DNA of 64,000 nucleotides from Psammoneis japonica (lineage: Eukaryota), in assembly GCA_008632985.1 (NCBI GenBank), contig QPGO01000076.1:1-64000 (forward strand). The letters are read 5' to 3'. This document shows, one piece after another, positions 16,540-64,000 of the stretch (its first letter is position 1; every line of letters begins with the position of its first letter). The notes beneath the pieces were generated by a model. The model did no database searches and was not told the origin of the DNA. It worked only from the letters and a program-made list of their open reading frames with translations. The position numbers were made by a program, and so were the translations under genes.

Positions 16540-17140
16540 TTTGCTCAGCCACTGCCATCCAGCAATCAAACCTTTGAACATGCCAGTTTGCTGCCATGGG
16601 GAGCAAGGTGACAAGAGGCCACAATGCCACAAGATCAACCTTCCTTGCAGCGCTCATTGGCCACAGCTTCAAAGGCTTGTCTGGGGTTGCCCAGGTGCGG
16701 CCAGTGTCAGCATCCTCAGCATGCTGTTGTCAGATTCATTGGTGCCATCACAGAGTCCTTTTGCTGTGGAGCTTGGAAGTCTGCGCTGCTGGTGGGGACA
16801 AGGTGACATGGGGTCACAACCACACAAACAGGCTTGGTGCTGCTCAACCATGTGGTTGTTGCAGCATCACCTGAGATTCACCAGAGGCCACCAAAGTCCC
16901 CAGCTTGCTGTCCTCACATTGACTGGCACCATCATGGGGTCTCTTCATTCTGGAGTTGGGAGTTTGAATTGCACTTCTGGCCAAAAGGACATGACAGGGT
17001 GCACAACTGTGCCATGCCAGAACTCTTGCACTGCTCAGCCACAGCTCTCAAATTGTTGCTTGGATCCACCAGAGACTGCCAGTGCCCTCAGCCTGCCATT
17101 GTTGCTCCTGGGTTGGTTTCCTCAGGTGTTGGTGCCATCA
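16540..17140. repeat. Degenerate internally repetitive element, related to 33410-34050
   Basis: Recurrent motifs CAAGGTGACA..GG.CACAA..CCACAAGATCA.CC and TGCCAGTGCCCTCAGC.TGC..TTGT in both regions. Confidence 0.65.
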
Positions 17141-40045: not shown

Positions 40046-40577
40046 ATGCACAACTCTTTGAATGGGCTCTTAACTCTCTGTGTGCTTGGTTTGAAATGCA
40101 ACGAGCGACTGAGTTTCGCCATTTTTTGTTGTGAATGCATGCTGCCTCCACCAAAGTCTCTGGAGTCATCTCATGTCATTTTTGGGCACTTGCTGAATCC
40201 AAACCTGCTTGAACATTGCAGCGCTCTGTTGGCATGTCTGCCAGCATGTTGATGATGATTCCAACAAGCCAGAAGGTCACGAAGAAGTCCCAGTTGCAGA
40301 TTTGGGATTTGCAATGAATCTGAGTGGGCATGAGGATGTTGTTCACGGAGGTGTTCTTGCCTTGATCATTGAAGATTCCATGGGTTTTGCTTTTGAATCA
40401 GCGGGAACACACGTGGCCTTTGCAGCCAATCCAAACATCAACTGCTGCCATCAGTCCCCGCCAGTGTGTCTGCCGTGCTGCGGATGCATCACAAGGAATC
40501 CAAACGGAAGTGTGTTGTGTGCCAAAGGATCAAGCCTTTTCATTTTGCCAAAGGACCAAAGTCAAAGTGATGGATGA
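40046..40577 (+). pseudogene. Hot-dog-fold (PaaI/THEM4-like) thioesterase pseudogene
   Basis: LSGHEDVVHGGVLALIIEDSMG...AFAANPNINCC corresponds to family motif GH..VHGG..A..D..G...T.NLNINY; frameshifted. Confidence 0.7.
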
Positions 40578-43500: not shown

Positions 43501-43979
43501 ACATCATTGATCATGTGCCGCAACTGTGCAAATGTCAGTGGGATTGAGGCACAGACGGAATGGGCATGCGTCAGTGTCAGAATGTCTGGGTGAAGCTGCA
43601 ATTTTATTTGACTGTTTCAGCCAATGGGAGTGTGTGTGCCAGGAATTTAAAAAGCGACTTCTTGTGCAAAAACCCATGAGAACAGGTGTGTCTTCTCAAA
43701 AGGTCACATTGGAGAGTTGTCACTTCTTCATGATGGAGCACACATGCACCATGCCGAACATGCATGGACAAGGGACCGCACCATGCCAAAGCATGGAGAG
43801 GGATGAGGTGAGTTTGAAATCAGTGAAATGCAAGCCTGTGGCAGTTGACTGACAACCATTGAGGCTCAATGGGGACGGTGCAGGGATGAGACAGTTCACA
43901 GGACAATGCACAGGTTGAAACCGTTGTGCAACAAAGCAGCAGTTTGGCAGTGATGAGAGGGACTCTCACATCATCATTG

Positions 43980-44800
43980 ATGGAAGAACAAGATGACATG
44001 ATGAGCAAACGACAAAAGAAAAAGCGACACAACAAAAAATGAATGACTGAGACAAGATTGTCTTGGAGAACTGCTGCAAGAAGACATTGTTCAGACAGCA
44101 CAAGTTTCTGAATGACAAGGCCCTGAACGACAGCAAGGGAAGAGTGGTGGACACAGTGCTGTCCAAGCCAAATGCACCCAAAGAAAAGAGAGCGCAAATT
44201 TGGGGCATGTCGAAGGACAAGGTGTGAAGTGCGAAGGCAGACAACAAGGAAGAGGAACATTGTGAGTGGGAAAATGAAGAAAGAATTTTTCAGCAAGTGA
44301 TGGAGTGACACGAAAATGGTGGCATGAAGAACAACTGACACACGTGGTTTCATGTGTTGCGAATGGACAGAGGGTGTCTGGATCACAACAAGAAGAACCC
44401 ACAAGGAAAAGACAAGATGCTGACTCTGGCAGAAATGCAAGAGGGAAGGGACTGCATGATGGCACAGACACATTTCACCCTCCACTTCCTGCCCATCGTG
44501 GTGGGAAAGACATGTTGGCATTGGCGAGCAACAAGGCATTCGGCCTGCCAATTTTGGAAAACAATTGGGACAAATGGACATGCACGCACAGTGGGATGAA
44601 GGAGAAGTTGAAGGTGACAAAAGAAGCAAGCATGCTTCTGGCTTCCGGACCCTGAGCACAGCAGTGGGAAGGGCTGAGAAGCAAAACGGAACCATGGGTG
44701 GAACAAGAGCAGACTGCTGGATGGGTGCAAAACCAACAAATTGCTTGAGGACATCTGCAGAATCCACACGTTTTTGCACCAAAGCTGTTGTCTTCTCAAA
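43980..44800 (+). pseudogene. Degraded coding remnant, possibly transposon-associated
   Basis: Protein-like fragments KIVLENCCKKTLFRQHKFLND, LHFLPIVVGK and SNKAFGLPILENNWDKW across frames; family not identified with confidence. Confidence 0.35.
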
Positions 44801-46900
44801 ACTTGTGCAAAAATGGACTTTGCTGCCAACTGATCAGGTGCATTTCTGCAAATGTGTTGTTCTAAAATGTGCCTGATCAGTCAGCAGCAAAGTCCATTTT
44901 TTGCAGAATTAAAATTCGCTGAGGGCAGATGGACAGACATTTCAATGTTTCTCTTGGTGCTGGTCCACACAATTTCTGCTCATTTTTTCACAATGACCAC
45001 ATGGCACGAAAGATTGCCGTTGAAATTGCAGAAAGGACAACAATGGACAGACCAAGAAGAAGGGGGGGGAAGGAACAAATGACTGATCCGCAAACGGACA
45101 ACAAAAGAAAAATGAAGCTGCGTGAGAAATTGTCAATGCAACAGCATGAATTGGGCACAAGCCAGCTACATTTTTAACGAGGGACCTGCATTTTTAACCT
45201 TGAGTCCAGCGGGATGGGATTTCGTGCTCAAATGAATGACTTGCACGTCGCAGACTCTGGCACAAAAGTGCTTTTCACCAGCCGGCCCGCCAAGATGCAA
45301 CAACGACATTGAAGCTCAAATCATCAACAACTCACTTGGAGACCAGACAAATTCAATGAAGACTTCAATGGCAAAAGACAAAATTGTCATGAGCCAGTCA
45401 CAAAATCTGAAAGCAGTTGTCGACGGAGCTCAAAAATGCTGTCCAACTGTGCAGAACAACATGCAGGGGTGCGCAAGTGAAAACCCAGATGTGTGTCCAA
45501 CATCTGTCCAACACTGGGCTCAAGGTCAATGCAAAAAGTTGGTGTGAGCATCCACATTAAATGCGGCGGAACCCCAAATGCAATGAACCCAAAACCTGCA
45601 TGGAAAATGCGAGATGGCCCGCATTGTTTCATGGCCTCCCAAACAAATTGTTCTCCCCTCTGATGTCACTTGGTTTTCTGGAAATTCGCACTTTGAAGAT
45701 GGTGCTGAGTGCCTCACACTTGCCAACAACAACTCACCATTCACTTGCCACATGTGCAGAATGGAGATGTCCATGGCTTTTTTCTGTGATCCGCCCACCG
45801 GCTTCAATTTTTGTGCACTCCATTTTAGAGCCCACACATGAATGCGCACAAACATGGGCAAAGAACCCCACTTGAACCAGCTTGAGTGCTTCAGCAAAAC
45901 ACACTCAAGACAGGCTTTTTCTTGCCACTTGCATGCTCTCTTGGATGTTTTGCCATGATTTGCTGGCCCAAATTTTCACCCCTCTGTGGAGGGAAAAAAC
46001 TCTTTGTCCCACAACTTCTTCAAGTTGAAAGAGCTGTGAAAAGCCAAGCTTGTGGTTGTGGGGTCAACTTTCCAGGCTCAGGCAGGCTTCTTTCCTGGCA
46101 TTGGCAGCTGGAGTGCTGTTTGGTGTCCACCCTGGCATGCTTTGCTTGTGAGCAATTTGAGCACACAACCAGGGCAAGTTGCCAAGCCTTGTCTGCGACA
46201 ATCTGGCCATGGAGAGATTGTTGCCCCCCAGCCATGCAAAAAATCACCCCTTTTGCTCTGAAGAATGAAGGCACTGTGCAGACCACATCTTCTGATTTGT
46301 CAGTGCTGCTGTCATCAAATGAGCATTGAAAATGACAGCAAACTGGGTGTCACATGCTCGGCAGGCATGGTCATGATGTCGGGCACTCTGGTGTCATGCC
46401 TCCTTCATTCTGACCCAGGCAGTGTGGCTGCATTGCTGTGGGTGCATCATGTGGCAACAGCTCTGACAATGTGAATGAATGACAACCCTGTTGCAGCATG
46501 TAAAGAGAGTTCAGCAGTGACTTAATTGACGCGTGTTGCATTAAAATCGAGATGGAAGTGAGCGTCTCACACAAGGTGCTGGCAGCGCAGCGCAGTGGCT
46601 AATTGGTGTAGGACATGTGCCTAAATATGATTGATCATAGGCACAACTATCACTCAGTTCGGGCACATCATTTTTTTGGGGGTTGATTTTTCATTCTTCG
46701 CAGCGACCACTGACACCTTTAATCCAACAAACGTTCCAAACACAAACTAGTCTAATCTTAAAGGTGTACCGGTACTGGAAGTTCATAGAAAACGACACTG
46801 TTCCTCATTTTGAAGGAAAATGATACCTTACAAGCAAACTTCCCCAGAGAAAGGAGCAGACAATTTTGATGCCTCGTTGCTTGCATGAGCTTCTTTTTCT

Positions 46901-49900
46901 TCAGCTTTCGCTTCGACTTTCGCTCCCGCTTCCACTTTCACTCCCGCTTCTTCTCCTCCTCCTCCTCCTCCTCCTCCTTAGCCCCTTTGTGCCACCTGGA
47001 GTGGAACTCGGCACGCTCGATGGAGTTGAACTTGGTAAAGTGCTGGGTTGACTCGATGGATGATCAGATGGCGACAAAGAAGGAGCACTGCTTGGAGCAT
47101 TAGATGGTGCATCACTTGGAACGAAACTAGGCATACTTGATGGCAAACTACTAGGTTGACTCGAGGGCACCACACTTGGTGAAGCGCTTGGCGTACTCGA
47201 GGGCATGTCTGACGGCGACAATGACGGAGAAACACTTGGAGAAACAGTCGGTGCAGTGGGAGCACTCGATGGTTCATGCGACGGTGACAAAGATGGAAAG
47301 TTACTCGGTGAACCGACGGCTCATCGCTTGGAGTCAAACTAGGCTGGCTTGATGGCATTGAACTCGGTTGGATTGACGGTAATTCGCTGGGGGGAGCACT
47401 TGGCGAACAGGATATTGTAGACAGTCGATAAACATAAACGCGCCCAGGATGCCCACCTCTGTTGAAAGAAGCACCCATCGCCACCGTCCTGGAATCAGCT
47501 GACAACGAAACGGAAACTCCAGCTGAATCACGGAACGCTTTTCCATCAATGTCATTGCCCAACTGCATCCAAGTCGTCCCAGTGAATTGATAGACACGGA
47601 CATGCCCGCCTTCATCATGGTAAGGAGCGCCAAGCGCCACCGTCATTCCGTCTGCTGACAACGAAATGGATCGTCCCAAATTATCACCTTCCACTTCTTC
47701 ATTTATGTCATCACCCAACTTGGTCCAAATTACTCCATCGTAGTGGTAAACACGAGCAAGCCCAAAAGTCTCAAAAAAGCCATTATAGTTGGGGTCAGGG
47801 TTTGGCCAAACGATAGCCCCAATCGCCACCGTCCTGGCATCCTCCGACAAGGACACGGAAAATCCCAATCGTTCACCTGCAGCTTCTCCATCAATGTCGT
47901 TCCCTATCTTGGTCCAACGCGTTCCATCGTAACCGTAAACACGAACATGCCCGGCTTGAAAACCATTGCCACCATTTTGATAAGCTCCAATTGCCACCGC
48001 CATTCCATCCCCTGACAATGAAACGGAATATCCTGAAAGATCACCTGCCGCTTCACCATTGATGTCATCACCCAACTGCGTCCAAGTCCTCGTTCCATTT
48101 ACATTGTATTTATAGACACGAACATGCCCGGCGTAAGTATAATTACGCCCGTTGTACTCGGTGTAAGTACCAATACCATCGCCATTATTGCCGTATGCAC
48201 CAATCGCTACCGTCATTCCATCGTTGGACAATGAAACGGATCCCCCAGAGCTGTCAATTTCCGCTTCTCCATCGATGTCATCACCCAACTTGGTCCAAGC
48301 CTTCGCACCATTTACATTCTTGTATTGATAGACACGAACATGTCCTGCACTACCACCATTGTCATCATTACCTGGAGCACCAATCGCTACCGTCATTCCA
48401 TCTGCTGACAATGACACTGACCACCCAGATTGGTCGTATCGTTCTTCCCCATCAATGTCATCGCCCAGCTGCACCCAAGATGTTCCGCTGTGTCGATAAA
48501 CACGAACATGTCCTATGCTATACAAAATACCATTGCCAGCATTAAATGGCGCGCCAATCGCCACGGTCCTTCCATCAGCTGATATTGAAACCGAATCTCC
48601 AAAAAAATCATTTGCTGCTTCTCCGTCAATGTCTTGGCCTAGCTGCATCCAACTAACACAATCACCAAGAGGCATGAGCGATGGCGCTTCGCTTGGAAAA
48701 TCAGTGGGAGCACTCGAAATCGATGGCTGATAGGACGGCAACAAAGACGGAGCAACGCTTGGAGAAATGGAAGGTATGCTCGACGGTGATCCACTCGGTT
48801 GGCTTGACGGAGTTGCACTTGGTGAAGCACTAGGAGATTGGGATATTGTAGACAATTGATAAACACGAACATGACCTGAATCACGGCCATTCACACCATC
48901 ATTGCGAATTGCGCCTATCGCCACCGTCCGGGCATCGTGTGACATTGAAACCGACCTTCCAGAAAAATCCTCAAACGCTTCGCCATCAATGTCTTGTCCT
49001 ATCTGGTTCCAAGTCGTTCCAGTGAATTGATACACACGAACATGGCCCTTCTTGATACCATCATCATCTTTATTGGCACTAGCACCGATCGCCACCGTCA
49101 TGCCATCATCCGACAAGGATACTGACCATCCAGAACCATCATTTTCCCCTTCTCCATCAACATCTTGGCCCAACTGGGTCCAAGTCGTTCCAGTGAATTG
49201 ATACACACGAACATGGCCCTTCGTGATACCATCATCATCTTTATTGGACACTGCACCAATCGCTATCGTCATACCGTCACCTGACAAATGCACCGATTTT
49301 CCGGACTTATCATTCGCGGCTTCTCCAACAATGTCTTGACCTATCAGAGTCCAAGTCATCATTCCATTTACATTGTATTGGTAAACACGAACAAGACCTG
49401 CACGTTGATATAGAACACCATCAGAACCAATCGCCACCATCATTCCGTCGTTAGACAAGGACACTGAATTACCAGAAAGATCACCATTCCCTTCCCCATC
49501 AATATCCTGGCCTAACTGGATCCAATGCTCTCCAATGAATTGATAAACACGAACATGCCCCGCGTTGATATAAGCACCATCATTCATTGGAGCACCAATT
49601 GCTACGGTTCGGCCATCATTTGACAATGCTACTGACGCTCCAGACCAATCGTTTCCCAGCTCTCCATCAATATCCCGACCCAACTGGATCCAAGACATTC
49701 CAATAAGTTGATAAACACGAACATGTCCGGCATTAAAAATATTGTGACTGTCGTTCCCACGCGCACCAATCGCCACAGTCATTCCGTCCCCCGATAAGGA
49801 CACTGAACATCCAGAATAATCGTCAGCTGCTTCTCCATCAATATCCTGACCCAACTGGATCCAAGCCATTCCAATGAGTTGATAAACACGAACATGTCCA

Positions 49901-50428
49901 GCTCGGTTACCAACCCCATCATTTTCGTTAGCTCCAATCGCAACAGTCATTCCGTCATCTGACATAGAAACGGAATATCCAAATTGATCACCTCTCGCTT
50001 CTCCGTCGATATCCTGGCCCAACTGCGTCAAAACCAGCCAATCTGCAATGGAAAGTTCTCTCTGGTGTTGAGATGAAAGCGACTGACGTAGACTTGTCCG
50101 ATTCGATAAATTATTCCTATCGGTAGGGAAGTATCGTTCGTTTGATAGATCATGATGCGTCTTGAGACGAGAAATGAATGAAGCAAGCATGTAAACTGTG
50201 AGCTTCAGGATTTTGTCTTTGTGAGTACTGCACAAAAGGAAAAGACAAAGTCGGTACGAAATCGGACAATCTTTCGACTTTCGATGATGAATGGCGTAAT
50301 GTTCTTACCTCGTTGCCGCTCACGCTTTTCTTCGTGTCGAAACTGTGATACGCCTTGATCATGGTCATTTCTTTTGCGAGCATGGCAGTTGCCAAAAGGG
50401 TCTTCAGGACTACCGTTGGGAACTTCAT
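46901..50428 (-). CDS. Secreted or surface adhesin-like protein: two 7-repeat FG-GAP-like beta-propellers with Pro/Ser (PSxxPS) mucin-like linkers
   Basis: 14 repeats of W.QLG.DIDGE..D.SG.SVSLS.DG.TVAIGA..N....GHVRVY (7+7). Signal-like MKFPTVVLKTLLATAMLA and 5' intron from 50308. Frameshift near 47305, so the C-terminus is uncertain. Confidence 0.85.
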
Positions 50429-51774
50429 GGCTCTTGACACTAGGTGGCTTCTTGGAGGAAGGTTTGCTTGTGCTTGTCCTTTTCTTCTCGAGGAGGAAAC
50501 ACAACGCAGCGAGGAAAATTCACATCATTAGTACGAACAAAATGAATGATACAGAAGGTAAAATCACTCACCTCGTAACAGCAAGCTGGATTTGTGAAAA
50601 CGAGAGAATTGTGAAGCTCAAAATGAAATAACAACAAACGCAAGCGCGAACCGCGATACCCGCGAACAGCAAACCGCGAACCTGAAGCGAACGGCAAAAT
50701 GATTTGTTTCACACAACAACCTTCAAGCAAAAGCCGCTTGTGCCGGCACATAATTGCTGAATGCTTTGCATGTGAAGCCAGCTGCAAAGGATTTGTTGGC
50801 ACAGCGCCTCAAAACGGCACTGCAACACAGGGAGATGATTGCCGGCATGCATGCGATGGAATGAGGTGAACACAATTACGAAAGAGCTGTCGTGCTCCTC
50901 CTCCGGCCGGCGGAGCATTGATTTTTTATCCTTTGTTCATTTTCACAAATGAATGAGTGCAATGCACGCATGTCCAACAACAATGAGCAAATCCAAAATG
51001 TCACTGAAATGTCCTTCGAAGAAAGACACTCAGAAGAGTTTGTGCCGCTGCCTGCACATCATGCAGTGCAGTGTCAGCCTTCTCATCACTGGCACACAAC
51101 AAAAAAAGCAGACGCGTTTGAACAATGCACCATGGCACAATGTGCTGGCAATGTATGATGGTGTGTCTGAGAATCACCAGCCATGCTTTCCCCTTCGTCT
51201 CACGACAACACCTCTTGCACAGCCGCCTGGCCTCACTCTCCCGCTGCACCCACTCTTGCCCCGCTCGCTGGGGTGCGAGAGACTTTGGTGGTGGGTGGGT
51301 TGGGTTGGGGTTGGGGTCAGCCCACCCAGCACTTTTTTCCCAGTCTTCTCTGCTTTGCTGTCATGCTTTTTGCATCTCTTTTCAACTTTCCTGCTGGGCT
51401 GTGTGGCGGCATCTGTGGCATCCTCTTCTTGGCACTTTGTTCTTTCATGAGACTTTGCCACACCCCAAGAAAGTGTGGTTGCCACGAGTGAGAATGTCTC
51501 ACTTTTTTGTGGTGAAAACTCTTCTCCTGGCCCCTTTGACTGATTTGATGTTTCTTTTGCACCTCTCTGGGTTCAAATGACTCGCCCATTGCTGCTTTCT
51601 GAGCAAGTGTCTCCACTCTGTTGATGGTGTGACAACAACGCTGCTGCTTTGAGTTTGTGGCTCATTCTGAGCTTGTGTTTTCTTGGGGTTGACAAGGGTT
51701 GCCAGGAAAATGCAAACCCGGAAATCCGGGCAGAAATTGGGGAAAACACAAACCCGGAAATCCGCAAAAACCCA

Positions 51775-51960
51775 GACAAATTGATGACAGACATGGACAT
51801 GTCCGGAAGAACCACCACTGCCATCATTGCAAGGAGCACCAAGCACCACCGTCATTCCATCTGCTGACAAAGAAATGGATTGTCCCAAATTGTCACCTTC
51901 CACTTCTTGGAATCAGCTGACAATGAAACAGATTTTCCAGCTGAGTCACGGAGCGCTTTT
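51775..51960 (-). pseudogene. Hypermutated, rearranged 3' fragments of a propeller-gene paralogue
   Basis: EGDNLGQSISLSADGMTVVLGAPCND matches 47580-47700; 51909-51960 matches 47490-47543. Confidence 0.8.
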
Positions 51961-52099
51961 GTTTGTGCAAATGACATTTAGACAAATGACTGTGATCTCT
52001 TCTGCTCTTGACTCTGCAGTCCACATGTCACTTGGGGTGGAGTTGGTGGCAAAGCGGCAGCAAAAGGAGGTGATTCCCTGTCCACCAATTCTTCAGCAT

Positions 52100-54564
52100 G
52101 CTCCACTGAGAAGTGCGCGTGCTGCCAATTTTCTGCAGCTTCCCTGCAGAAGTGAACAAACTGTGTGTTTGTTGAATGGCTCAATGCCAAAGACACCACA
52201 AGTTGTTGAACAAACATCCAAGACAATGACCAACATCAGTCTTGCATGCTTTTTCCATGGTGTTGTTGTTGTCCCTTTCACACAGCTGAGGTCGTGTGAA
52301 CTCAAACTCAGCACTCGCGCATCCACAAAAAACAGCGTGCTTCTGTGCTTGGCGAAACAATGCATTGTCAGGGTCCAGGGCCAACATCAGCAATTGATGG
52401 ACAGAGAATGTGTGCTGTTTGCAGACACTGGTCTCTCCCTGCACTTTCAGAGCTGCTTTGCAGACACGACAACCATCATCATCTTCAACTGAAAAAGGGA
52501 GAATCAGTCTTGTTCCCCAATGTCCAGCCATGTCAACAAAGTCACCACTGCGCAAGTCAATCTTAGAGATCATCATTCAACAATTGAAAATCAGTGTCCA
52601 TCAGCAATGCAGTTCAACAATGAAAAAAGAATTTGCAAATTGGTGCGCACCGTGTGCCTGGGTTCTGTCTCGATCGGATCAAACCGTTTGTTTGGCTTCA
52701 GTTTTCTCATCATTCCAATGCAGACAAATTGCAAAAGCCAATGTGGGGTGCAACACCACAGAGCCACTCTGCCATTTTCTCTTTTGACATGCCGTGCCGA
52801 TCCTTCCACAAGTCGCAAGAACACTTGCATTCCAACCAAAACAATGACTGCTTTCAAGACTGTCTTGCACGTTGCTGCATTGCACTCAACTTTCCCAACC
52901 ACATCTTCTGAATCAAGGACAGACCAAAGAAACTCTTGTCCTTCTTTGTTCCAGGCGTTGTCCATGCTCATGTCTGTTTTGCAGTCTGGGTTCAACTCCT
53001 GTGTTGTTTCTTCGACAGTTGACTCAGCAATGGGCCGCACCTCTTCATGCAGCTCTTTCCATTTTGCAACTTTCAACAACACAGGCAACACTTGCTCCAA
53101 CTTGTTCAAAAACGGACGGGTTGGCTCTTGATTGCAGACAAACATTTGCGATTCCTTGACAATCTTGATTGCCCGGCTGCACGCAATTGTGATTGGGAGA
53201 ATTTTCTCTGAATCAATTGGTGGCAGAGGAACCAAACTTCCATCTTGGAGGGGCTCTTGTGATGGATCGGGATGTTGCACCAACTCCCGTAGAACCACAA
53301 TGTCTTCTTTCAACAAAACCTCTGGTCTCTCAGATTTCTCTAAAGCCACAGCCTTGCTTTTCTCATCGTGGTCCTCAACAATTGCACAAGCCTTTTCTTT
53401 GTCAAACTCATTTGGGTCATTGACAAAGAGCAATTGCTTGTTGGTGCAACTCTTTTCAAATGCATTGCGCTCATCATCATTTGTCTCTCTTGCTGCCAGA
53501 ATCATGAAATCAAGTTCCAGCCTGGCCATTTCTGCAGTCATCATGCTCTGACCATCCTTGAACACTCTTTTTCCATTTTCATCACAGGTCCCCATTTGAC
53601 AGAAATGTTCCTTTCCATTCTTTCTTAGATGGACATTTTGAAAGGGAATGAAGAGTGCTCGAAACTTCTTGTCTCCCACTTCACCGCAAGGAAAAAGCAA
53701 ATGGGAGACTTGCAAATGGTGCCCATCTGCAGATGGTCAAGATCCCTCTTCAACGATTTTACTTTGATGCAAATGTTCACCACTTCTTTCGTCTTGTGAT
53801 TGATGCAAGTGTTGTTTCCTTTTTGACTTGCATTCTCAGTGCATCCAAGTTCAACTGCAATGTTCTTCAACATTTTCTTGGCACAGGAGAATCCATCAGA
53901 ACCAAGCTTGTCAATCAAGTCCACATCAAGACTTCCATCCTCCTTGATGCAACCTTTTTGGCAAGAACGACTGGCTCATTTTTTGATCCAGTGGGTGCTC
54001 CATTGTTTTCGGAAGACACCTCATTCCAATGGCGGGTCTTCACTCTTTCCCTCAACTTCTTGCCCACTGCACATTTTAGAGAAGTCAGGTAAAATCAAAA
54101 AATGATCAGTTCACAAAAAATGTTCAAACAGCAAATTCATCGCGGGACAGACATTCATCATGCTGCAGACACTTGCACACGTTGTCCGCCTCAATCCTGT
54201 TGAGATCATTGACAAAAGCTCTTTGCAAAATTCTTGCTTCACCAATTCTCTCCCCATTGGCAGCAAAGAATGTGTCGCAATGATTGACCTTTTGTTTCAA
54301 ACAACCAAACTCTTTGGCAATCTCATTGAGCAGAGACACTCTTTCGTCTCTGCTTCTATGAAGTGAGCCAATCAACTCCATGTCAACAGAGTTGTCCTCC
54401 TTGACACTGCACTGTTTCGCGACCAGCACAATCTCTTTGTGTGAGCCAGTTTGTCCATTTGCAACATTTTTCACCACAGAGGCAGAAGCAGTGGTGGCAG
54501 CTGCAACAGGAGGAGCAGCGGCGGTTGTGGCTGCTTTCTCGATCCTGTGTGAGCAGTTTTCCAC
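52100..54564 (-). pseudogene. Degraded long gene (Tyr-free) with possible C-terminal HNH-endonuclease-like motif
   Basis: ORFs 54124-54564, 53625-53924, 52591-53715 (374 aa, no Tyr) and 52181-52576; FSVHQLLMLAL...DVGHCLG.LFNNLW resembles VHRLVA.AF...VDH..G...NN. Confidence 0.4.
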
Positions 54565-55622
54565 ACAAAGTTTTTGACGGTCTTAAGAGGTTTTCTCTGC
54601 CTTTTGTGACTGGACGGCTTTTTGTTGGGTGAGTGCTCCAAAGCCTCGGAAGCCTCTGAAGAAGATGAGGAATCCATTGTCTTTTGGCTTGAGCAGGCTG
54701 CAAATGCCGGTGTTGTTCATGAACAATGAGAGCAGCAACAGGCGAGTCATCCGATCTTTGCCAATTACCACTTGCCTGGTGCTGAGTGAGTTGCCAGTGT
54801 GTGCGGACCACGTCATGCAATTTCCACTTGCTGGGTGCCACCGCAAGCGAGAGAGCAGATCATCCAAAGCTGGTGTGAACAGCATGACTGAGCGAGACAG
54901 CCAGAAAACATTGAGAACCGACTGTGAGCGAAAGCAATGTCTCCATGGAGGATGAGGCCATCACAAACGAGCATCCCGAGGCTGCTTTGGTTGAATTTTT
55001 GTTTGCTGAATCAATGAATGTAGTTCGTTGTGCATCGAACTATCTTCTCAGGAAAGAACTGAAGATTGTTGATGAAATCTTTGGGATTGTCTAGAAAACA
55101 AGGAGCCAGTCATTTCTGCAATGACATCATTTCGTGACGGCATGATTGAGCATGATGGTGTGGACAAGGCCACCCACACGCTGATCCAAACAATTGATGT
55201 TGCTCTACAGAATCGTTTGCATTTCGCTGTTTGGCAAAAACAAGAAATCAAGGAATTGTTCTTCCAGAAAAAACTGCTTGAGAGCAAAGCCCACGATGTC
55301 TTCACGCAGGCAATGTTTGAATTGGAGACTGTCCTCGACATCATTTCCAGCTGGAATGCGGAAAGTGCCTTCTTGATGCACAAGGAGTGCACAGCTGAAT
55401 TGGAGGCATCCAAGAAATGGTTTGTTGAGAATCGGCGCTGCAAGGAATTTCAGGCTGTCCGCATCTGTGACAAATCACACTGCTGTGAAGAAATCCATTG
55501 CAGCAGCATGGACGATGAATCGTTTTTGACAGACCAAGTGGGCGACAAGCTTTGTGAATGAGAGGAAGAGCTAGTTGCATCAGTTGCATCTGTGAATGTA
55601 GAGGACACCTGCGGCACGTCTG

Positions 55623-55857
55623 TGCGACAACTCTCGTCTGAGAGCTGGGAGATGTTGATGGAAGGTGAGCAGCAATCGCACTGCCAGCAGCAGGGCTGAC
55701 AATGGCGATGGAATCGACAAAGCTGCCAATGTCTTGTTGCACTGGGTGTTGCAATTGTGAGCAGAAAAAGGGGAGAAGTTCTCCAAAAGAAGGGCGGGAA
55801 ATCGCGTGCGTGAGTGAAGAGCGCACGAATCGCGCATGAGTTCGCACTGTGTTGACA
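55623..55857 (-). repeat. 3' LTR
   Basis: Direct repeat of 61696-61930, preceded (minus strand) by the PPT. Confidence 0.95.
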
Positions 55858-55866
55858 CTCCCTCTC
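55858..55866 (-). promoter_or_regulatory. Polypurine tract
   Basis: GAGAGGGAG immediately before the 3' LTR. Confidence 0.85.
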
Positions 55867-55877
55867 GAACAAAGAAG

Positions 55878-58800
55878 CTGCCAACCACAAAGCAACTTGC
55901 AAATAGACTCAAATTTGACCGTGACGAGTCCTTTTGTTAAAATGTCAGCGCATTGCAGGTCTGTTGCGATCTTAGATGCAGCAATTCGGTTTGGTTTCAG
56001 CTGTGAACAAAACCAGCGACACTTGATTGCGCAGTGCTTGGACCTTGGCGTAACTTGGCCAGGTTCCATGTTAGCCAGAGTCAAGGCTCCAGCATTGTCC
56101 TCCCACACGGTGGTCCTGATGGTCTTGGTGGTCCCCAGACCAACTCCAATGCCTTGGGAGATGGCTTGCACAGTGCGAAGAAAGGGAAGGACAGTTTTCA
56201 TGCATGTGGAGAGAGAGCGCTGCACTCTGCCTCCATGGTTGAGAGTGCGATCTCGGGTGCAAGCTTGCCAGACCAGACAACAGGACAGTTTGAAATGCAA
56301 GCAACAAATCCTGTTCGGCTCTTGACACAAGCCGGGTCTTGCATGTCTTCATGCGGCCACAATCCAGCAAAATCTGAGTCAACAAAAACATCAATGTTGA
56401 AGTCCCCAGATGGCTTGAGGATCAAACCTTCCTCCAGTGCACCCTTGAGGCATCGGCCAATCCTCTCGAGGGCTTGTTCATGCAAGCAGTGCAGACTGTG
56501 AACAAATCTTGTGGCAGAGCTAAGTGCATGGGTGATGTCAGGCCTTGAATGGCCCTGGAGATGCTGGAGCATGCCAACAACACTGGCGCAATTGAAAGCT
56601 CCATTTGGTGGGTTTCCATCGGTGTCCTTGACCAAATGGGCAGCCAGTGCCCCCATGTTTGGGCCTTTGGCAGATGGCCCACATTGAGGGCTTCGACGAC
56701 ACGCTTGGCTGGGCCGCTCTGGGTGAGCTTGACAGTGCCATTGTCGGTGTTGCAATGGATGTGGACGCCCAAAAAACCTGCGACGGAATCCTCGACTTTG
56801 ATGGCCAGACCGCCATCAATTTTGAGTTTTTCAATCACTTCGTTGATGCACTCTTGCTTCAGTGAAAAGAACAATGTGTCGTCAACATGCACAAGGCAGA
56901 TGACCTCATCGGACACGAAAAGGCACGGATCAACATCATCTTGAGATTGAAATCCGACGTCTTCAAGTTTTGATTTGAGGTGCAGGAAAAAGTTGCGTGG
57001 TCCTTGCTTGAGACCATGCATGGTCTTCTTCAGTTGCAGCACTTTGTGTGGGGCTTTGTGTGACCGCGAGGCATTTGCATGAACACGCCAGAGCGTTCCC
57101 GTTCTTCAGGCATCATGGTGTCCCATTTGGGATCTTCATCAATCGGAGCATGCACGAAAGCCATGACATGATCAACTTGCTTCATGGAGAACTCAAGAAT
57201 TTGAGAAAGCATGAGCATCAGCCACGCTGTTGTCCAATTGACAACTGGAGCAAAGGTGTCAAAACAATCAACACCTTCCAATTGCTTGTCACCGCAGACA
57301 CAGAATTGGGCTTTGTGTTTCTGGATTGACCCATCAGGGTGCCGTTTGCATTTGAAGGCCCAAGTGGATGGCAGAACATTCATCCAATCTTGGCGGTCAA
57401 CCTCCTCCCAAGCATCTTTGCCGTTGACAAGGGAGTCAATTTCGACATCACAAGCCTTGAGATGGGCTGCACGATCGGGCTCACTCACAGCTTCTTCCCA
57501 AGCAGGGTTGTCGGCAGAATTTGCATTAGCTGCAAGAGCCAGAGGATGCATTTCTTCGAGTGTGCCGTGAACTTGATCGGTGTTTTTGTTGAAAAGGTTG
57601 ATCACAGCACGCAAGTCTTTTGATTGGAGTGCGTTTGTAACACTGTCCCACTTCTTTGGGGCCATCAGAAACTGCTTGTTGAGTGTCTCTGATTTGGCCA
57701 TTCGTTTGGGATTCTTGCAGGCTGCTGGCAACTCGTTTGGAGGAGTGCGAGTGTCAGCCATCATGGCTTCAACAAGGCGGTCCGGTTTCTTGATGGTGCG
57801 GCGCTGCGAGTCCAAGTGGCAGCAGCAGGAGCATTCGGCGCCGCTTCAGTGGGCTCAGCGATGTCTGAGCCAAGATCCAGGTCTTCAGGCAAGTCGTGAT
57901 GGTCAACTAGGGACAAATCGTTGTTGCTGTTGTCGCTGGACTCATCGATTTCGACTCCCTCTGGAGCCTCTGAAGTTGCAGATGCCAGATCATCGATGAT
58001 TCAGGATCAGCAGGAAGCGCTCCCTCTGGAGCTGTGATGGAAGAGGTTGGTTGAGGTTTAGTTTTGCCAGGAGAGGCGCGCTGTTGGCGGCGCAACTTCC
58101 ACGCCTGACGATGGGTCTCATGGTGGCGGCGCTCTTTGGGCATCAGCCAATCGTCATGCAGTGCGGGCAAGTGATGGCGAGGGTCCTCAGAAGGCTCGTG
58201 GTCAAGAGCGTGGTTGACCATGGAGTCAGCAGCAAGCAGGGACTCCCAAACGTCAGCGGAGAAAGGGATGTCCTGAAAGTGCCCCCCAGAGTCACTGTTG
58301 GGCACGGTGGAGAAGTGGTTGTTGTAGACCACATGGTGTTGAGGGCCAACACAGCCTGTCACAAGGTTGAGGATCAGGTCAATGTTCATGGAATGAGCCG
58401 GGGAGATGCCAAGGTGTTGGCCGCGATGGCTGCGCAGGTCCCACTTCGAAACTTTCTTGCCATCCTGCAGTTTGGGATCTAAAACATGCACAGGACAGCC
58501 CCACACTTGCAAGCACTGTAAATGCATGCAGGAATCAAAGCATTGCTTGGAATGGATCTCGACAGGAGCAGTGCGAGTGTCAACTTTCAGAAGATGATTC
58601 CACAAATGAGCGGCGTGAGTCATGGCAAAAGGCCAAAGTTCCAGATTGGCGGCATCAGGCCACATGAGGACGGCATGGAGCAACGCAGATCTTGCCCATG
58701 AGGTGGTGGTTTGAATGGAGCACTCAGCAATGCCGTTTTGATGATGGGCGCCAACACCAGAGAAGTCTGTTGTCTGGTGGTTCTCTTTGAGATCTTGCAT

Positions 58801-59300
58801 GAAGGCCTCAGAGCCAAAAGGGATGTTGTCAGCAAGGTGTTGCTTGACCTGGACCCCAAATTGGTCACCAAGCTGCTCAAAGGCACGCTCAGCACATGTG
58901 GTTTCACCTGCAGTGAGACCAACTTGATGGGTCAGGAACATGCAGCTAGAGGCGTGATCGACACTGGTTGATGGAAGACGGCCAGGGACGCGGCTGATGT
59001 GCTGGTCAACAGAGACGCATTGACCTGGAGACAAATCGCCCCCTCTCACAACACCATGGGCAGAGGTTTCGATGTGCTGCGGCGGTCCGGAGTGCGCCGC
59101 TTTTGTTTGGCCAGTTGACAGGCGGCACATGATGGAGGTGCACAACCTGCCACCATGTCAGATTTGGGTTTAAGGACTTGGGATTTGGTGGGATCCCTTG
59201 GGACAGCACTGAGATGTTGGATGTGTTGGAAGCCAGCGTGACCAAGTTTTTGATGAAGCAGCAGAAGCTCCTTTTGACCTGGACGTTGGATGAAGGAAGG
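55878..59300 (-). pseudogene. pol: Copia pol (integrase, reverse transcriptase, RNase H), frameshifted; protease not recognisable
   Basis: LHQKLGH...CAACQLAK; VDHAS; ADN..F; GAHHQNGIAE; WGCPVHVLDP.LQDG; WAFKCK; DTFAPVV.W; LKK.MHGLKQ.PRNF; CLVHVDD; VDSDFAG; ALSTMEAE; EDN.GA; ADILTKGL; LLCGW. Confidence 0.95.
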
Positions 59301-59709
59301 AACAAGTGGGGTCTCTTCGTGGGAATCGAACTGGATGACGGTCCAAACGACGAACTTGCACGTGATGACATGATTTGTGGTGCATCCGATGATGAAGAGG
59401 ATGATGATGTGGGCTGTGTTCCAAGGACAAGGTGACAACAAACCAAGGCATGTCATCGCATGAGAGCGAAGGATTCTTGGAAAAGAGCAGCAAGCAGAAA
59501 AACAACCCACCTGCTGAAACAAAAAGGAACTGCAAAATGGCAGAGACGGCTGCTTCTCCTCCCTCTGCAAGAATCTGGAGAGCAAACCACAAGAGGAGGG
59601 ACTGCACCGCAGTCATGCAAGCCTGGATGTCCCTTCCAGAAAAGGTTGTTTTGCTGAAAAGCGAAAAAGGGTGGGCTGCATGCTCAAAGAAGGAGGCGTG
59701 CCCGAAGCT

Positions 59710-61230
59710 TCAGGTGAAGGAAGCAAAGAGACCAGTGATGGTCTCGGCGACCTCGCGCTTGGCATTTGCAACAGCCACTTTGCGGTCCGGATGCAGAGCG
59801 GAAGCAGGGGCCGGGGCAGGAGCAGGTGCAGGAAGTGCTGGGGGCACAGTGGCAGCACCAGCAACTTGAGCAACAGGGCACAAGCGCTTGGTCTTGTGTC
59901 GACAGCAGTGATCTTCACCATCAATGTTGCGGCGACTGTCATTGTTCTTCTCGGCGTCAGTTGAGGGTTGCCATTTCTTGGGAATGGTCTTGGTTGGCTT
60001 GCCATCCTTCCTGGAAGAGGCATCGTTTTTGTTCTGAGCCCGTTTCACGTCAAAAAACAGTTTCTTGTTTGCACGCACTCGTGCATCGTCGACGGGCTGC
60101 TTGCAGTCGGAAAGAGGATGAGGGCCACCACAATTGAAGCAGTTGACTCCTCCAGCAACAAATGCGGTTGCATTCTTCTCAGCAGTCACGCTGGACCACT
60201 GGTCAGAAGATGCAAGGGCCGGGTGTTGAGCCTCCACGAATTCAAGGAGATCAGGCACGGATGTGGTGCTGATGGTCGGACCACTGGACTCAAGCTTGGA
60301 GATTTGAGAGTCCTTGGTGAGGTGGTCAAAAAGGGAATTAAATTCCGGGATGCTGGAGGTCTGGAACACCTTGGTGAGGTTTTCCATGAAATCAGAAGGA
60401 ATGACAGACTTGCCTTTCTGATCCTGGAGGTTCTGGAGTCGAGTGCATCCACCACGGATGAGTGAGACAACTTTGCCAACGTCTTCACCATCAAAATTGG
60501 TGATCTTGAGCAAGATCATGTTGGCGACCAAATGACGAGCAGCCTCCTTGGAGTTGCTCTGCAGGAATTTCATCACAAGCAAGAAAAAGAGAGGTCCGCC
60601 TTGTTCTTCTTGCGGATGCTTGAGGCATGTCTCGTTGACTTTCTCCTGGAGGGCACAAGAGGCGTTCCTCTCAAAACAGTCACAGGCAAGACGAAGGTTT
60701 TGGCTGGCTGAGGTCCCATCAGGGTCCTCGAGTGTCGTAGAGTGCCACTTGTTGCTCTTCACGACTTCGGCTTCGGTGATCGTCAAATGCTCGGTGCAAA
60801 GATCACGAGTCTTGAAGGTGACAGGATCGACAATTTGGAAAACATCGTCCACATCGCACTTGACGTGGTTCGACCGCATGGTCGAGATGGACATGGCCAG
60901 ATCACAAGTGTCTTCAAGTTTGTCCGGATCATTGATGTTGAAATTTAAGAGGTCAAAACGCGTCTGCAGTTTCGCAGCAGCTTGCTGGAATGAGTCATTG
61001 AGCTTGTCCGGGTCCAACTTGTTCCTCTGCTGTTTAGTGCAGAGAGCAGCAAGAGCATCCATGGACGTTTTAGGGGTCACGCGGACTTTGACTTTCCTGC
61101 TGTTTATCTCCACCTCAGCAGTCGTGGTGCTGGCAGGCGGAGTCGGCGGAGTCGGCGGACATGGAGGCGGAGTCGGCGGACTTGAAGGCGGAAGAGGTGG
61201 ACTCGCTGATGGGCTGGTCATGCGAGTCAC
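59710..61230 (-). pseudogene. gag: Copia gag-like ORF with zinc knuckle
   Basis: EQGGPLFF, FQTSS.PEFN..F, CFNCGGPHPLSDC; 506 aa without a single Tyr. Confidence 0.85.
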
Positions 61231-61681
61231 TCAAGGAAATGCAGGTTCTTTGGATGACGGTCAGCAGTTTGACCGTTGTCCATCCGGAAGTGAGCCCATT
61301 GTCAAGTTGTGCGGGTGACAGTGGCCTGACGGTCTCGAATTGTTGCTGTGCGACGAAAGTTTCAAACTTCGTTCGTCATCACAATGCGGTCGCCGACACA
61401 AAAATCTGCGACGGTCAGTTCTCTGTCAATGACAGGCCAAGATGGTCCGGCTCCAGCTCTGTCACGGTTCTGTCATTCGCGTTCAGATGCAATGCGATGA
61501 ACTGAGTCGGCTTCTTGCAGTTGAAGCTCTTGTGGTTGTTCAATGAGGTCGTCCAGTGTCTCAGAACTGCAATTGGACATCAACGTTCTGCACACAGAAT
61601 TGCACGTAAAAATGTACAGAGCTCAATTCTCGTCCACCGGAGAGAAAAGAGATGAGGCGCAGGAGTCGTCAAGCATGATGC

Positions 61682-61695
61682 TTGGGCTCCTGACC
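61682..61695 (-). promoter_or_regulatory. Primer-binding site (degenerate copia-type, half-tRNAiMet)
   Basis: GGTCAGGAGCCCAA directly after the 5' LTR resembles copia GGTTATGGGCCCA. Confidence 0.6.
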
Positions 61696-61930
61696 TGTGA
61701 CAACTTCGTCTGAGAGTCAGGAGATGTCGACGGAAGGTTGAGCAGTGATCGCATTGCCAGCAGTGGGGCTGACAATGGCAACAGAATCGACAGGGCTGCC
61801 AATGTCTTGTCACACTGGGTGTTGTAATTGTGAGCAGAAAAAGGGGAGAAGTTCTCCAAAAGAAGGGCGGGAAACCGCACGCGCAAGTGAAGAGCGTGCG
61901 AGTCGCGCATGAGTTCGCACTGTGTTGACA
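61696..61930 (-). repeat. 5' LTR
   Basis: Direct repeat of 55623-55857. Confidence 0.95.
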
Positions 61931-62059
61931 GTCTGGACTGGACACAGAATTGATTCCGCAATCCCCTCTGGAGAGCAGGAAGAAGAAAAAGAGTTCAAAG
62001 CAGAACTTCAAAAATGCAGGTGGGAAACATTGAAACTGCAGCATGTGATGATGTGTTTC

Positions 62060-64000
62060 AAATCAATGTCTTGACCCAACTTGCTCCAAGCTGTGCCAAT
62101 GAGTTGACAAACACAAACATGTCCGGCATTGACAATGTTGTGGCTGTCGTTCCCACGCACACCAATCACCACACAGTCATTCCGTCCCCCGATGAGGATG
62201 CTGAACATCCAGAACAATTGTCAGCTGCTTCTCATCAACATCCTGACCCAACTGGATCCAAGTCATTCCAACAAGTTGATGAACATGAACATGTCCAGCT
62301 CAGTTGCCAACCCCATCATTTTCGTTGGCTCCAATTGCAACAGTCATTCCGTCAGCTGAAATGGAAATGGAACATCCAAATTGATCACCTCTCGCTTCTC
62401 CATCGATGTCCTGGCGCCCATCTGCGTCCAGACCAGCCAATCTGCAATGGAAAGTTCTCTCTGGTGTTGAGATGAAAGCCACTGACACAGACTTGTCCAA
62501 TTTGACAAACTGTTCCCATCGGCAGGGAAGCATCGTTTGTTTGACAGATCATGATGCGTCTTGAGACGAAAAATGAATGAAGAAAGCATGCAAACTGTGA
62601 GCTTCAGGATTTTGTCATTGTGAGCACTGCACAAAAGGAAAAGACAAAGTTGGTGCAAAATCGGACAATCTTTCAACTTTCGATGATGAATGGTGCAATG
62701 TTCTTCCCTCTTTGCCACTCAAGCTTTTCTTCATGTCGAAACTGTGATGCGCCTTGATCATGGTCATTTCTTTTGCGAGCATGGCAGTTGCCAAAAGGGT
62801 CTTCAGGACTGCTGTTGGGAACTTCATGGCTCTTGACCCCAGGTGGCTTCTTGGAGGAAGGTTTGCTTGTGCTTGTCCTTTTCTTCTTGAGGAGGAAACA
62901 CAATGCAGTGAGAAAAATTCACATCATTGGTGCGAACAAAATGAATGACACAGAAGGTAAAATCACTCACCTCGCAACAGCATGCTGGATCTGTGAAAAC
63001 AAGAGAATTCTGAAGCTCAAAATGAAACAACAACAAATGCAAGCACCAACCGTGACACCTGCGAACAGCAAACTGTGAACCTGAAGCAAACGGCAAAATG
63101 ATTTGTTTCACACAACAACCTTCGAGCAAAAGCCGCTTGTGCTGGCACACAATTGCTGAATGCTTTGCATGTGCAAGCCAGCTGCAAAGGATTTGTTGGC
63201 ACAGCACCTCAAAATGGCACTGCAACACAGGGAGATGATTGCCGGCACCGGCATGCATGCAATGGAATGAGGTGAGCACAATTGCGGGAGAGCTGTCGTG
63301 CTCCTTGTCTGGCGGAGCATTGATTTTTTATCCTTTGTTCATTTCACAAATGAGTGAGTGCGGTGCATGCATGTCCAACAACAATGAGCAAATCCAAAAT
63401 GTCACTGAAATGTCCTTCGAAGAAAGACACTCAGAAGAGTTTGTGCCACTGCCTGCACATGCAGGCAGTGCAGTGTCAGCCTTCTCATCGCCGGCACAAC
63501 AAAAAAGCAGACGCGATTTGAACAATGCACCATGGCACAATGTGCTGGCAATGCATGATGGTGTGTCTGAGAATCACCAGCCATGCTTTCCCCCTTGTCT
63601 CACAATGACACCTTTTGCACAGCCACCTGGCCTCACTCTCCCGCTGCACCCACTCTTGCCCCACTCGCTGGGGTGCGAGAGACTTTGGTGGTGGGTGGGT
63701 TGGGGTTGGGGTCAGGGTCAGCCCACCCAGCACTTTTTTCCCAGTCTTCTCTGCTTTGCGGTCATGCTTTTTGCATCTCTTTTCAACTTTCCTGCTGAGC
63801 TGTGTGATGGCAACTGTGGCATCCTCTTCTTGGCACTTTGTTCTTTCATGAGACTTTGCCACACCCCAAGAAAGTGTGGTTGCCACGAGTGAGAATGTCT
63901 CACTTTTTTGTGATGAAAACTCTTCTCCTGGACCCTTTGACTGATTTGATGTTTCTTTTGCACCTCTCTGGGTTCAAATGACTCACCCATTGCTGCTCTC
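62060..64000 (-). pseudogene. Hypermutated duplicate of the 5' part and upstream region of the propeller gene (49670-51600)
   Basis: Collinear alignment; GYSVS->GCSIS, GHVRVYQ->GHVCVCQ, KAYHS->KAHHS; small indels. Confidence 0.92.

Follow-up and report, generated by a model that had tools for sequence, protein, structure and literature searches.

Why has a retrotransposon, together with the chromosomal DNA around it, lost nearly all of its TpA dinucleotides, and why do the two long terminal repeats (LTRs) of that element differ mostly by the exchange of CA for TG? The question arises from a Ty1/copia LTR retrotransposon located on the minus strand at positions 55623–61930 of contig QPGO01000076.1 (assembly GCA_008632985.1) of the diatom Psammoneis japonica, of which the first 64,000 nt, hereafter the window, were analysed. 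We propose, with a probability that we put at roughly 0.8, that a TA-specific hypermutation acting at the DNA level and confined to chromosomal domains explains the element, the CA/TG doubles between its LTRs and the TA-purged blocks of the window. The copia element inserted with a 5-bp duplication and now lies inside a sharply bounded chromosomal domain, one of several, where on this reading a DNA-level process changes A to G at 5′-T-A-Y-3′ on either strand and turns TpA into TpG or CpA. A single hit would destroy TpA on both strands, hence the site would be immune thereafter and its end state either CA or TG; conversion would be near-saturating, with each ancestral TA resolved roughly as by the toss of a coin. 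Since the LTRs would have mutated independently, about half of their ancestral TA sites should now appear as CA/TG doubles and the other half should agree. CpG decay (CG to TG or CA) would run more slowly in the same domains, and genes outside them would be spared.

Differences between the LTRs and their ancestral state

The initial annotation described a pair of 235-bp LTRs bounded by an intact GTCTG target-site duplication (TSD), differing mostly at YpR dinucleotides, with at least seven CA/TG doubles and a single surviving TA, and all of these features were found again on alignment. Over 234 columns, the 27 mismatches were 27 transitions and 0 transversions, accompanied by two one-base indels. 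YpR dinucleotides held 21 of these 27 mismatches, divergence amounting to 21/118 at YpR and 6/116 elsewhere (27/234 overall), so that the remainder of the LTR is far less diverged than its YpR sites. Seven adjacent CA/TG doubles occurred, at positions 55646–47, 55673–74, 55691–92, 55709–10, 55738–39, 55811–12 and 55824–25 of LTR1, the repeat with the lower coordinates. The other adjacent double mismatches were one AA/GG and one GT/AC (55806–07), the latter being a pair of adjacent CpGs, one decayed in each LTR; paralogous contigs read A at 55806. The one TA left lies in LTR2 (61825–26) opposite CA in LTR1, with 0 TA/TA columns, and CG faced CA or TG at six sites and was common to both LTRs at 11. 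From these counts, CpG loss is estimated at ~21% per LTR (11 CG/CG, 6 CG/YR) and TA loss at ~97% (0 TA/TA, 1 TA/YR, 7 doubles).

Random placement of 27 transitions gave a mean of 0.58 CA/TG doubles and a maximum of five in 100,000 trials, and a model of CpG decay alone, fitted to the CG columns, predicted 0.41 doubles (Poisson P(≥7) = 2.7e-7). Since the doubles are too numerous for CpG decay, most of them would have been TA, and this ancestral state is supported for the majority of the doubles by the comparisons that follow. CA and TG products are both present in each LTR, and the pair by itself is proof of mutation after LTR duplication; such pairs offer a simple genome-wide test of whether mutation followed integration. 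LTR divergence reached 11.5% overall versus 5.2% at non-YpR sites, with no transversion, which bears out the earlier warning that dating by LTR divergence overestimates age, here and in genomes of this kind.

Protein alignments led to the same ancestral dinucleotide. Columns with at least 50% Tyr were taken from an alignment of 79 homologs of at least 1200 residues, out of 120 long homologs listed. At 21 such conserved Tyr columns the element showed His (CAY) at 12, Cys (TGY) at six, Phe at two and Tyr at one, and Tyr had become Arg at 0 of 21, while other conserved residues of the same alignment were kept by the element in 57–90% of columns. Likewise, the integrase open reading frame (ORF) contains one Tyr in 416 residues versus 2.5% Tyr in 60 homologs. 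At 13 of 44 conserved Arg columns the element now has Cys, His, Gln or Trp, which indicates that CpG decay is present too.

Paralogous copies of the element gave a more direct polarisation. Contigs from a public sequencing run were aligned to the window at 80% likeness (n = 663; 175 at least 99% alike and 196 below 90%), and word depth was 300–1000 in the element versus ~55 in the flank, which shows the family to be multi-copy. At 55812, all four covering paralogous contigs carried A; the resulting gcgTAagt stands opposite TG in LTR1 and CA in LTR2. A loose contig end of a second public run, aligned by eye, read cagTAggg at the double 55691–92, and TA also at three positions that are CA or TG alike in both LTRs. 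With TA in paralogs at both doubles that the contig comparison covered, two of the seven, and doubles far in excess of CpG decay, the claim that each LTR resolved its ancestral YpR sites on its own is upheld, and neither outcome that the initial annotation had named as refuting its reading was obtained.

The element as a whole contains 24 TA in 6308 bp, an observed/expected ratio (o/e) of 0.07, and 80 related copia loci from metagenomes gave TA o/e values of 0.31–0.88; none of the 80 had a TA o/e of 0.3 or less, the search patterns favouring intact copies so that this is not evidence of absence. Among 15 terminal-repeat pairs of related copia loci, 14 conserved 4–35 TA and the most divergent (L017) none, and 0 CA/TG doubles were found in these 15 pairs. 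Seven doubles under a coin flip would correspond to ~14 ancestral TA per 235-bp LTR, which is ordinary for this clade. Taken together, these comparisons support the view that the low TA content of the element is not inherited composition.

TA-purged blocks and host-gene duplicates

The window is bimodal. Four blocks (Table 1), which add up to 30,490 of 64,000 bases (48%), show TA o/e values of 0–0.13 per kb (edges ≤0.29), CA+TG o/e of 1.4–1.9 and mostly low CpG, whereas non-block DNA has TA o/e of 0.35–0.98 and CpG o/e of ~0.7–1.2, with abrupt borders between the two; TA density is 3.15 per kb in the blocks versus 40.26 elsewhere. The process is thus regionally confined. In the block that holds the element, gaps between successive TA extend up to 1168 bp, and host DNA beyond the TSD is on both sides as TA-free as the element itself. 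The normal-TA compartment includes intergenic and intronic DNA as well as genes for a RING finger protein, a histidine phosphatase, PhyH, DUF4336, a multi-exon GcpE/IspG and an RWD protein. CA and TG counts per kb showed no skew. The segment 13001–14000 combines a CpG o/e of 0.90 with a TA o/e of only 0.05, and the element has per-kb CpG o/e of 0.49–0.86 and TA o/e of 0.02–0.11; low TA with near-normal CpG at 13001–14000 means that TA purging and CpG decay are separable, and these values together indicate that the CpG clock does not govern the loss of TA.

One consequence concerns annotation. The 30.5 kb of blocks contain 64 TAA or TAG versus 742 TGA stop codons, and the erasure of TAA and TAG leaves long spurious open frames in several frames of either strand; in purged DNA, spurious long ORFs may hence be reported by gene callers, and homology searches lose Tyr-containing motifs.

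Two host genes, each with a copy in normal DNA and another in a block, allowed the changes to be polarised, namely a FG-GAP repeat gene (dupA) and an ADP-ribosyltransferase gene (dupB). Their gene-region copies retain TA and Pfam domains (FG-GAP_2, E 7e-53; ART, E 3.7e-12). The 40 TA of the dupA gene copy appear in the block as CA (20), TG (17), TA (2) and TC (1), and the 57 of dupB as CA (27), TG (19), TA (7) and others (4). TA had therefore become CA or TG at 37/40 and 46/57 sites, 83/97 in total (47 CA, 36 TG), and at 0 of 97 sites had it become CG. Reversals, with TA in the block opposite CA or TG in the gene copy, numbered 0 in dupA and one in dupB, which sets the direction of the process as loss of TA. 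In the same in-block copies CG had changed to TG or CA at 46/86 and 28/105 sites, with four and 10 reversals (27–53% of CG lost), so that in these polarised pairs TA was lost 3–4.6 times faster than CG; in dupB, 27% CpG loss stands alongside 81% TA loss. The left border of the last block (~51154) falls within the gene-region interval of dupA (49666–51599), and of the five CA/TG doubles of dupA only two lie where both copies are purged, the place expected for them, a count that is uninformative. In each duplicate, mutation is limited to the in-block copy, hence targeting looks domain-based rather than homology-based.

Specificity was determined from the duplicates on both strands. A>G changes affected 84 of 194 adenines in TpA, compared with 19/612 in ApA, 24/547 in CpA and 15/494 in GpA, a rate of 0.43 after T versus 0.03–0.044 after A, C or G. 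C>T changes reached 73/379 before G and 0.018–0.04 otherwise. The spectrum consists of transitions only in the LTRs and of 83 TA>CA/TG changes against one reversal in the duplicates, with CpG decay as a separate second component. The 3′ neighbour also matters: edited adenines were followed by C in 35 cases, T in 24, A in 14 and G in 10, and the spared adenines of the same TA by C in 17, T in 23, A in 24 and G in 19 (chi-square p = 0.009; pyrimidine versus purine, Fisher p = 0.004). A preference for a 3′ pyrimidine predicts that Y-TA-R sites resist. The TA that survive in the blocks are indeed Y-TA-R in 47 of 96 cases versus 258/1349 in normal DNA (odds ratio 4.1, p = 3e-10), and R-TA-Y in 5 of 96 versus 371/1349 (odds ratio 0.14, p = 1e-7). 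As read from this footprint, the target is 5′-T-A-Y-3′ on both strands. ADAR favours a 3′ G, whereas G is the base least often found 3′ of the edited adenines here.

Possible agent, rival explanations and known systems

The agent is probably a DNA adenine deaminase. We infer that it could be ADAT2/TadA-like, converting A to inosine that is read as G, and directed to silenced chromatin, with a possible role in genome defence that kills mobile or duplicated DNA. T-A-Y is similar to U33-A34-C35, the anticodon-loop context of TadA-type tRNA adenine deaminases, and would narrow the search for the enzyme.

A precedent is available in the chlorarachniophyte Bigelowiella natans. The main text of the preprint by Mettrop et al. 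(bioRxiv 10.64898/2026.01.13.699255) reports that in mutation-accumulation lines two integrated viral regions mutate ~1000 times faster than the remaining genome, in some lines only, with 230 of 231 mutations being A>G or T>C and all of them at TpA. It further describes TpA-depleted clusters at other places in that genome, with reverse transcriptase (RT) and DDE domains enriched among TpA-depleted coding sequences, gives a normal nuclear TpA frequency of 6.0% and a Rho of 0.45 for the nucleocytoplasmic large DNA virus (NCLDV) region, and its authors propose an ADAT2-like DNA adenine deaminase. The two cases are alike in showing almost only A>G/T>C changes at TpA, giving TpG or CpA by strand, in their confinement to chromosomal regions, and in having TpA-depleted, CpA+TpG-enriched clusters with mostly unannotated genes. 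They differ in the host, a rhizarian there and a stramenopile here, and in the targets, which are viral regions in B. natans but an LTR retrotransposon and host-gene copies in the diatom window. Depletion is deeper here (TA o/e of 0–0.13 over 48% of the window versus 0.45 in the NCLDV region of the preprint), and a T-A-Y preference is seen, trinucleotide context being unmentioned in the preprint's main text. The evidence is also of another kind, de novo mutation in mutation-accumulation lines in the preprint and fixed differences only in the window. A term search of the preprint text gave no mention of diatoms, LTRs or retrotransposons.

Within the literature searched, TpA-specific A:T>G:C chromosomal hypermutation has been reported once before, in B. 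natans; what is new here is the diatom lineage, the LTR retrotransposon and gene copies as targets, the T-A-Y motif and the near-total depletion. No diatom case was found in the literature on diatoms, TpA context, RIP-like processes and deaminases, most subscription journals lying outside the search. Mutation accumulation in Phaeodactylum (PMC6604790) shows, in the sections consulted, a GC>AT bias and mutable CG, CC and TG contexts, with no TpA effect. If the diatom footprint holds, the process would be present in a second, distant and ecologically dominant lineage, and would reach LTR retrotransposons and displaced gene copies beyond viral inserts.

Our proposal shares with repeat-induced point mutation (RIP) of ascomycetes a DNA-level, dinucleotide-specific, transition-only mode of action on both strands of mobile or duplicated DNA, with distorted LTR dating. 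RIP makes TpA from CpA (PMC2621366), whereas here TpA is destroyed (CA/TG to TA at 0 and 1 sites versus TA to CA/TG at 37 and 46). RIP also mutates both copies of a duplication, while here only the in-block copy is affected and the gene-region copy is spared. ADAR and APOBEC3 systems are likewise deaminase-type, causing context-specific transitions that inactivate retroelements, and ADAR has a 5′ U preference as well, as stated in the main text of the B. natans preprint (bioRxiv 10.64898/2026.01.13.699255). Their substrates are RNA or single-stranded cDNA prior to integration, and the changes have one polarity, whereas here both polarities occur and flanks are included; moreover, a 3′ G is disfavoured here and there is no C>T excess outside CpG.

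The initial annotation had placed the process on chromosomal DNA and on both strands. The second half of that statement stands, and the first half is supported by the purged flanks and host-gene copies together with the B. natans precedent, the LTR pair alone dating the mutations only to a time after LTR duplication. Several points weigh against chromosomal, TA-specific hypermutation as we propose it. It is deduced from fixed differences in one 64-kb window, the enzyme, the modified base and a de novo event being unobserved. The duplicates are coding DNA, in which selection on the gene copies could shape TA survival, and direct polarisation was obtained for only two of the seven doubles. LTR differences on two strands could also arise if unintegrated double-stranded cDNA were edited after LTR duplication. 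The LTRs have lost ~97% of TA at 21% CpG loss, versus 81% of TA at ~27% CpG loss in dupB; this saturation beyond the CpG clock of dupB implies a rate that is not uniform, either episodic, in a burst, or stronger on the element. The blocks show no recognisable transposable-element or viral domains, hence foreign DNA as the target is not shown. Finally, contig support may not be fully independent, since assembly and public runs possibly derive from a single sample.

The best surviving alternative, although an unlikely one, is that the T of R-T-A is modified, for instance oxidised to 5-hydroxymethyluracil or 5-formyluracil by a TET/JBP-like enzyme, and pairs with G to give T>C. Oxidised thymines mispair with G, and the footprint is strand-symmetric, so that T>C at R-T-A and A>G at T-A-Y are indistinguishable by sequence. 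To our knowledge, diatoms have no TET/JBP-like thymine modification system, and the likeness of T-A-Y to the TadA loop context favours adenine deamination instead. The same holds for the B. natans precedent, the only experimental one, whose authors propose an ADAT2-like deaminase, without proof (bioRxiv 10.64898/2026.01.13.699255). A link to dinoflagellate 5hmU was considered and dropped, since among the listed matches of the GcpE gene of the window, at 77–91% identity overall, the named ones are diatoms or MMETSP transcripts, and the contig set amounts to only 141 Mb.

Quite improbable is an untargeted, genome-wide TpA bias combined with age, the blocks being old neutral DNA and the genes keeping TA by selection. 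It would agree with the fact that non-block DNA is also somewhat TA-poor (o/e mostly 0.35–0.98) and that the blocks are lowest in CpG, as old methylated DNA would be. However, TA o/e is bimodal with abrupt edges, intergenic and intronic DNA of the normal compartment keeps TA, TA loss is uncoupled from the CpG clock both at 13001–14000 and in the element, and the LTR pair shows 0 transversions in 234 bp with TA nearly all gone.

Hardly more credible, and if anything slightly less so, is editing before integration, either ADAR-like on RNA or by APOBEC or an adenine deaminase on cDNA, with the chromosome not serving as substrate. By the established reverse-transcription scheme, editing of RNA or of minus-strand cDNA yields a single polarity and identical LTRs, whereas CA and TG products are found side by side in each LTR here. 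Beyond the TSD host DNA is equally purged, as are the in-block copies of the two host genes; G is the least favoured 3′ neighbour, contrary to ADAR, and C>T outside CpG stays at 2–4% with no APOBEC signature. Apart from the double-stranded cDNA route mentioned above, this possibility has in its favour the 5′ T preference, which resembles the 5′ U preference of ADAR as given in the main text of bioRxiv 10.64898/2026.01.13.699255.

A sequencing or assembly artefact, with modified bases at TpA miscalled as CA or TG, has almost no probability. Systematic miscalls at modified motifs do occur on some long-read platforms, but they would not halt at domain borders nor coincide with CpG loss. In Logan contigs of public run X1 (exact 31-mers, word depth ~57, longest contig 315 kb), a contig reproduces positions 54520–55740, including the first 118 bp of LTR1 (55623–55740), with six substitutions, all in the flank and none in LTR1, and four indel letters of unplaced position. 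Sampled window words were nearly absent from public runs X2 and X3, and no contig of X3 aligned to the window.

Pure CpG decay, in which the doubles are methylated CG deaminated on opposite strands in the two LTRs, is just as close to negligible: although genuine here, as seen in the six CG/YR LTR sites, the GT/AC double, the 13/44 Arg columns and the 27–53% of CG lost in the blocks, it is already contradicted by the number of doubles, by the change of Tyr TAY to CAY or TGY at 18 of 21 columns, by the TA of paralogs at two doubles and by the faster loss of TA.

A broader extension of our proposal is that diatoms possess a defence targeted to chromatin domains, with an ADAT2/TadA-like deaminase of T-A-Y specificity that is homologous to the B. 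natans system and old and widespread in SAR (stramenopiles, alveolates and Rhizaria). We regard this as tentative and rather doubtful as a whole. If true, this defence would kill retrotransposons and stray gene copies by turning Tyr codons into His or Cys codons, with TpA erased faster than CpG decays, and would be a mirror-image counterpart of fungal RIP.

Among the 120 long copia homologs listed, one (P0169) shows a partial Tyr>His/Cys change, with Tyr at four, His at five and Cys at five of 16 Tyr columns; the same process may act in the sampled organism from which it comes. Another homolog (P0143) carries Phe at 14 of 27 conserved Tyr columns, a different and unexplained bias. Homologs with less than 1% Tyr numbered four of 240.

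The element and its surroundings

Table 1. Coordinates of the retrotransposon parts, TA-purged blocks and duplicated host genes in the window
Feature	Position	Strand	Basis or remarks
Target-site duplication GTCTG, left	55618–55622		Identical 5-mer on both element sides
3′ LTR in element sense (LTR1), 235 bp, TG..CA	55623–55857	−	Direct repeat of 61696–61930
Polypurine tract region, GAGAGGGAG on element strand, abutting 3′ LTR	55858–55870	−	Read directly
RVT_2 reverse transcriptase and RNase H region, at least 4 reading frames, HVDD active site	55881–57800	−	Pfam, tblastn
Integrase ORF, 416 aa (1 Tyr, 34 His, 12 Cys)	57907–59157	−	Pfam SH3_retrovirus (below curated cut-off)
Gag-pre-integrase/protease region	59046–59612	−	Pfam gag_pre-integrs E 3.1e-5, below curated cut-off
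Putative gag ORF, 506 aa	59710–61230	−	Open frame at expected place
5′ LTR in element sense (LTR2), 235 bp	61696–61930	−	Holds the lone surviving TA, 61825–61826
Target-site duplication GTCTG, right	61931–61935		Identical to left 5-mer
TA-purged block 1	9442–18147		TA o/e 0–0.29; TA-free run of 3326 bp at 14443–17769; holds ADP-ribosyltransferase paralog 12557–14208
TA-purged block 2	33008–35513		1-kb TA o/e and TA spacing
TA-purged block 3	40071–46501		1-kb TA o/e and TA spacing
TA-purged block 4	51154–64000 (window end)		TA o/e 0.01–0.13; CA+TG o/e 1.38–1.79; holds element and both flanks
dupA	49666–51599 (normal) vs 62062–64000 (in block, directly right of element)		91.6% identity
dupB	31125–32760 (normal) vs 12557–14208 (in block)		

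The element has the end structure of an LTR retrotransposon, both LTRs starting with TG and ending with CA and being flanked by the 5-bp TSD. RVT_2 was above the Pfam cut-off in two ORFs (E 8.9e-9 and 5.4e-12), the RT being split over two frames, and the gag_pre-integrs and SH3_retrovirus matches lie upstream of the RT on the minus strand, in copia gene order. Full-length copia polyproteins align collinearly with the element in tblastn, and a near-length protein search with the integrase ORF gave 271 homologs. The named best copia homologs come from the diatoms Nitzschia, Fragilaria and Cylindrotheca at 44–53% identity, all homologs being at most 54% identical. Diatom Ty1/copia LTR retrotransposons, reportedly named CoDi-type in work said to be that of Maumus et al. 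in 2009, share with the element an RVT_2 RT, a gag-pre-integrase and an integrase arranged as in copia, together with short LTRs and a 5-bp TSD. The window copy differs from these relatives in being dead and in its TA o/e, 0.07 compared with the range of the 80 related loci given above. The putative gag ORF matched 0 Pfam families, no recognisable tRNA complement was found as a primer-binding site next to the 5′ LTR, the window having no tRNA gene for comparison, and further copies of the element within the window were found neither at the DNA nor at the protein level.

Judged by its reading frames, this copy is dead. Compared with one homolog (P0121) by tblastn, the RT region runs through frames 3, 2, 1, 3 and the whole pol region through frames 3, 2, 3, 2, 1, 3 (at least five frame changes) with two in-frame stops, and the RT motif LIYVDDTL of the homolog is LVHVDDTL in the element, YVDD having become HVDD. 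Paralogous contigs show 1–2-bp indels at 56209, 56218, 56655, 57994 and 59039, at or near the frame shifts of the element, which suggests that the frameshifts are private to the window copy.

The substitutions at Tyr codons are ordered along the element. Tyr>His (CAY) changes fill the integrase and the first part of the RT, and Tyr>Cys (TGY) changes the end of the RT and RNase H (56021–59001, minus strand), in four runs versus nine expected by hand count; the bulk CA and TG counts have no matching skew. Strand-coordinated tracts were considered and rejected, as CA and TG are not skewed per kb and runs tests on strand in the two duplicates were not significant (z = −0.46 and −1.63); the clustering of Tyr>His and Tyr>Cys is left unexplained.

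The targets seen comprise one block with the copia element and blocks with host-gene copies. Transposable-element or viral Pfam domains were found in none of 85 block ORFs (at least 110 aa), which gave only sub-threshold or FG-GAP matches. Inside block 4, a contig of run X1 departs from the window at 55296–55298, with GCA in place of ATG: a TG/CA double accompanied by an A/G difference, the flank being otherwise 99.5% identical. Two haplotypes, or two strains, could have resolved a single TA in different ways here, which would hint at a recent process.

In block 1, a direct repeat of 650–750 bp with 71% identity (11507–12158 and 14382–15122) brackets the purged ADP-ribosyltransferase copy, and may be a remnant of a carrier element by which the gene fragment was moved. 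An ORF of 1108 aa on the minus strand (46981–50304) is built of ~172-bp FG-GAP_2 repeats and has a purged partial paralog immediately to the right of the copia element (62062–64000). GcpE/IspG, of the plastid methylerythritol phosphate pathway, lies on the plus strand at 23285–25492 with at least three exons and is useful as a marker of the host; none of the listed proteins exceeds 91% identity to it, and its named matches, all diatoms, include Fistulifera, Cylindrotheca, Conticribra, Pseudo-nitzschia, Attheya and Odontella.

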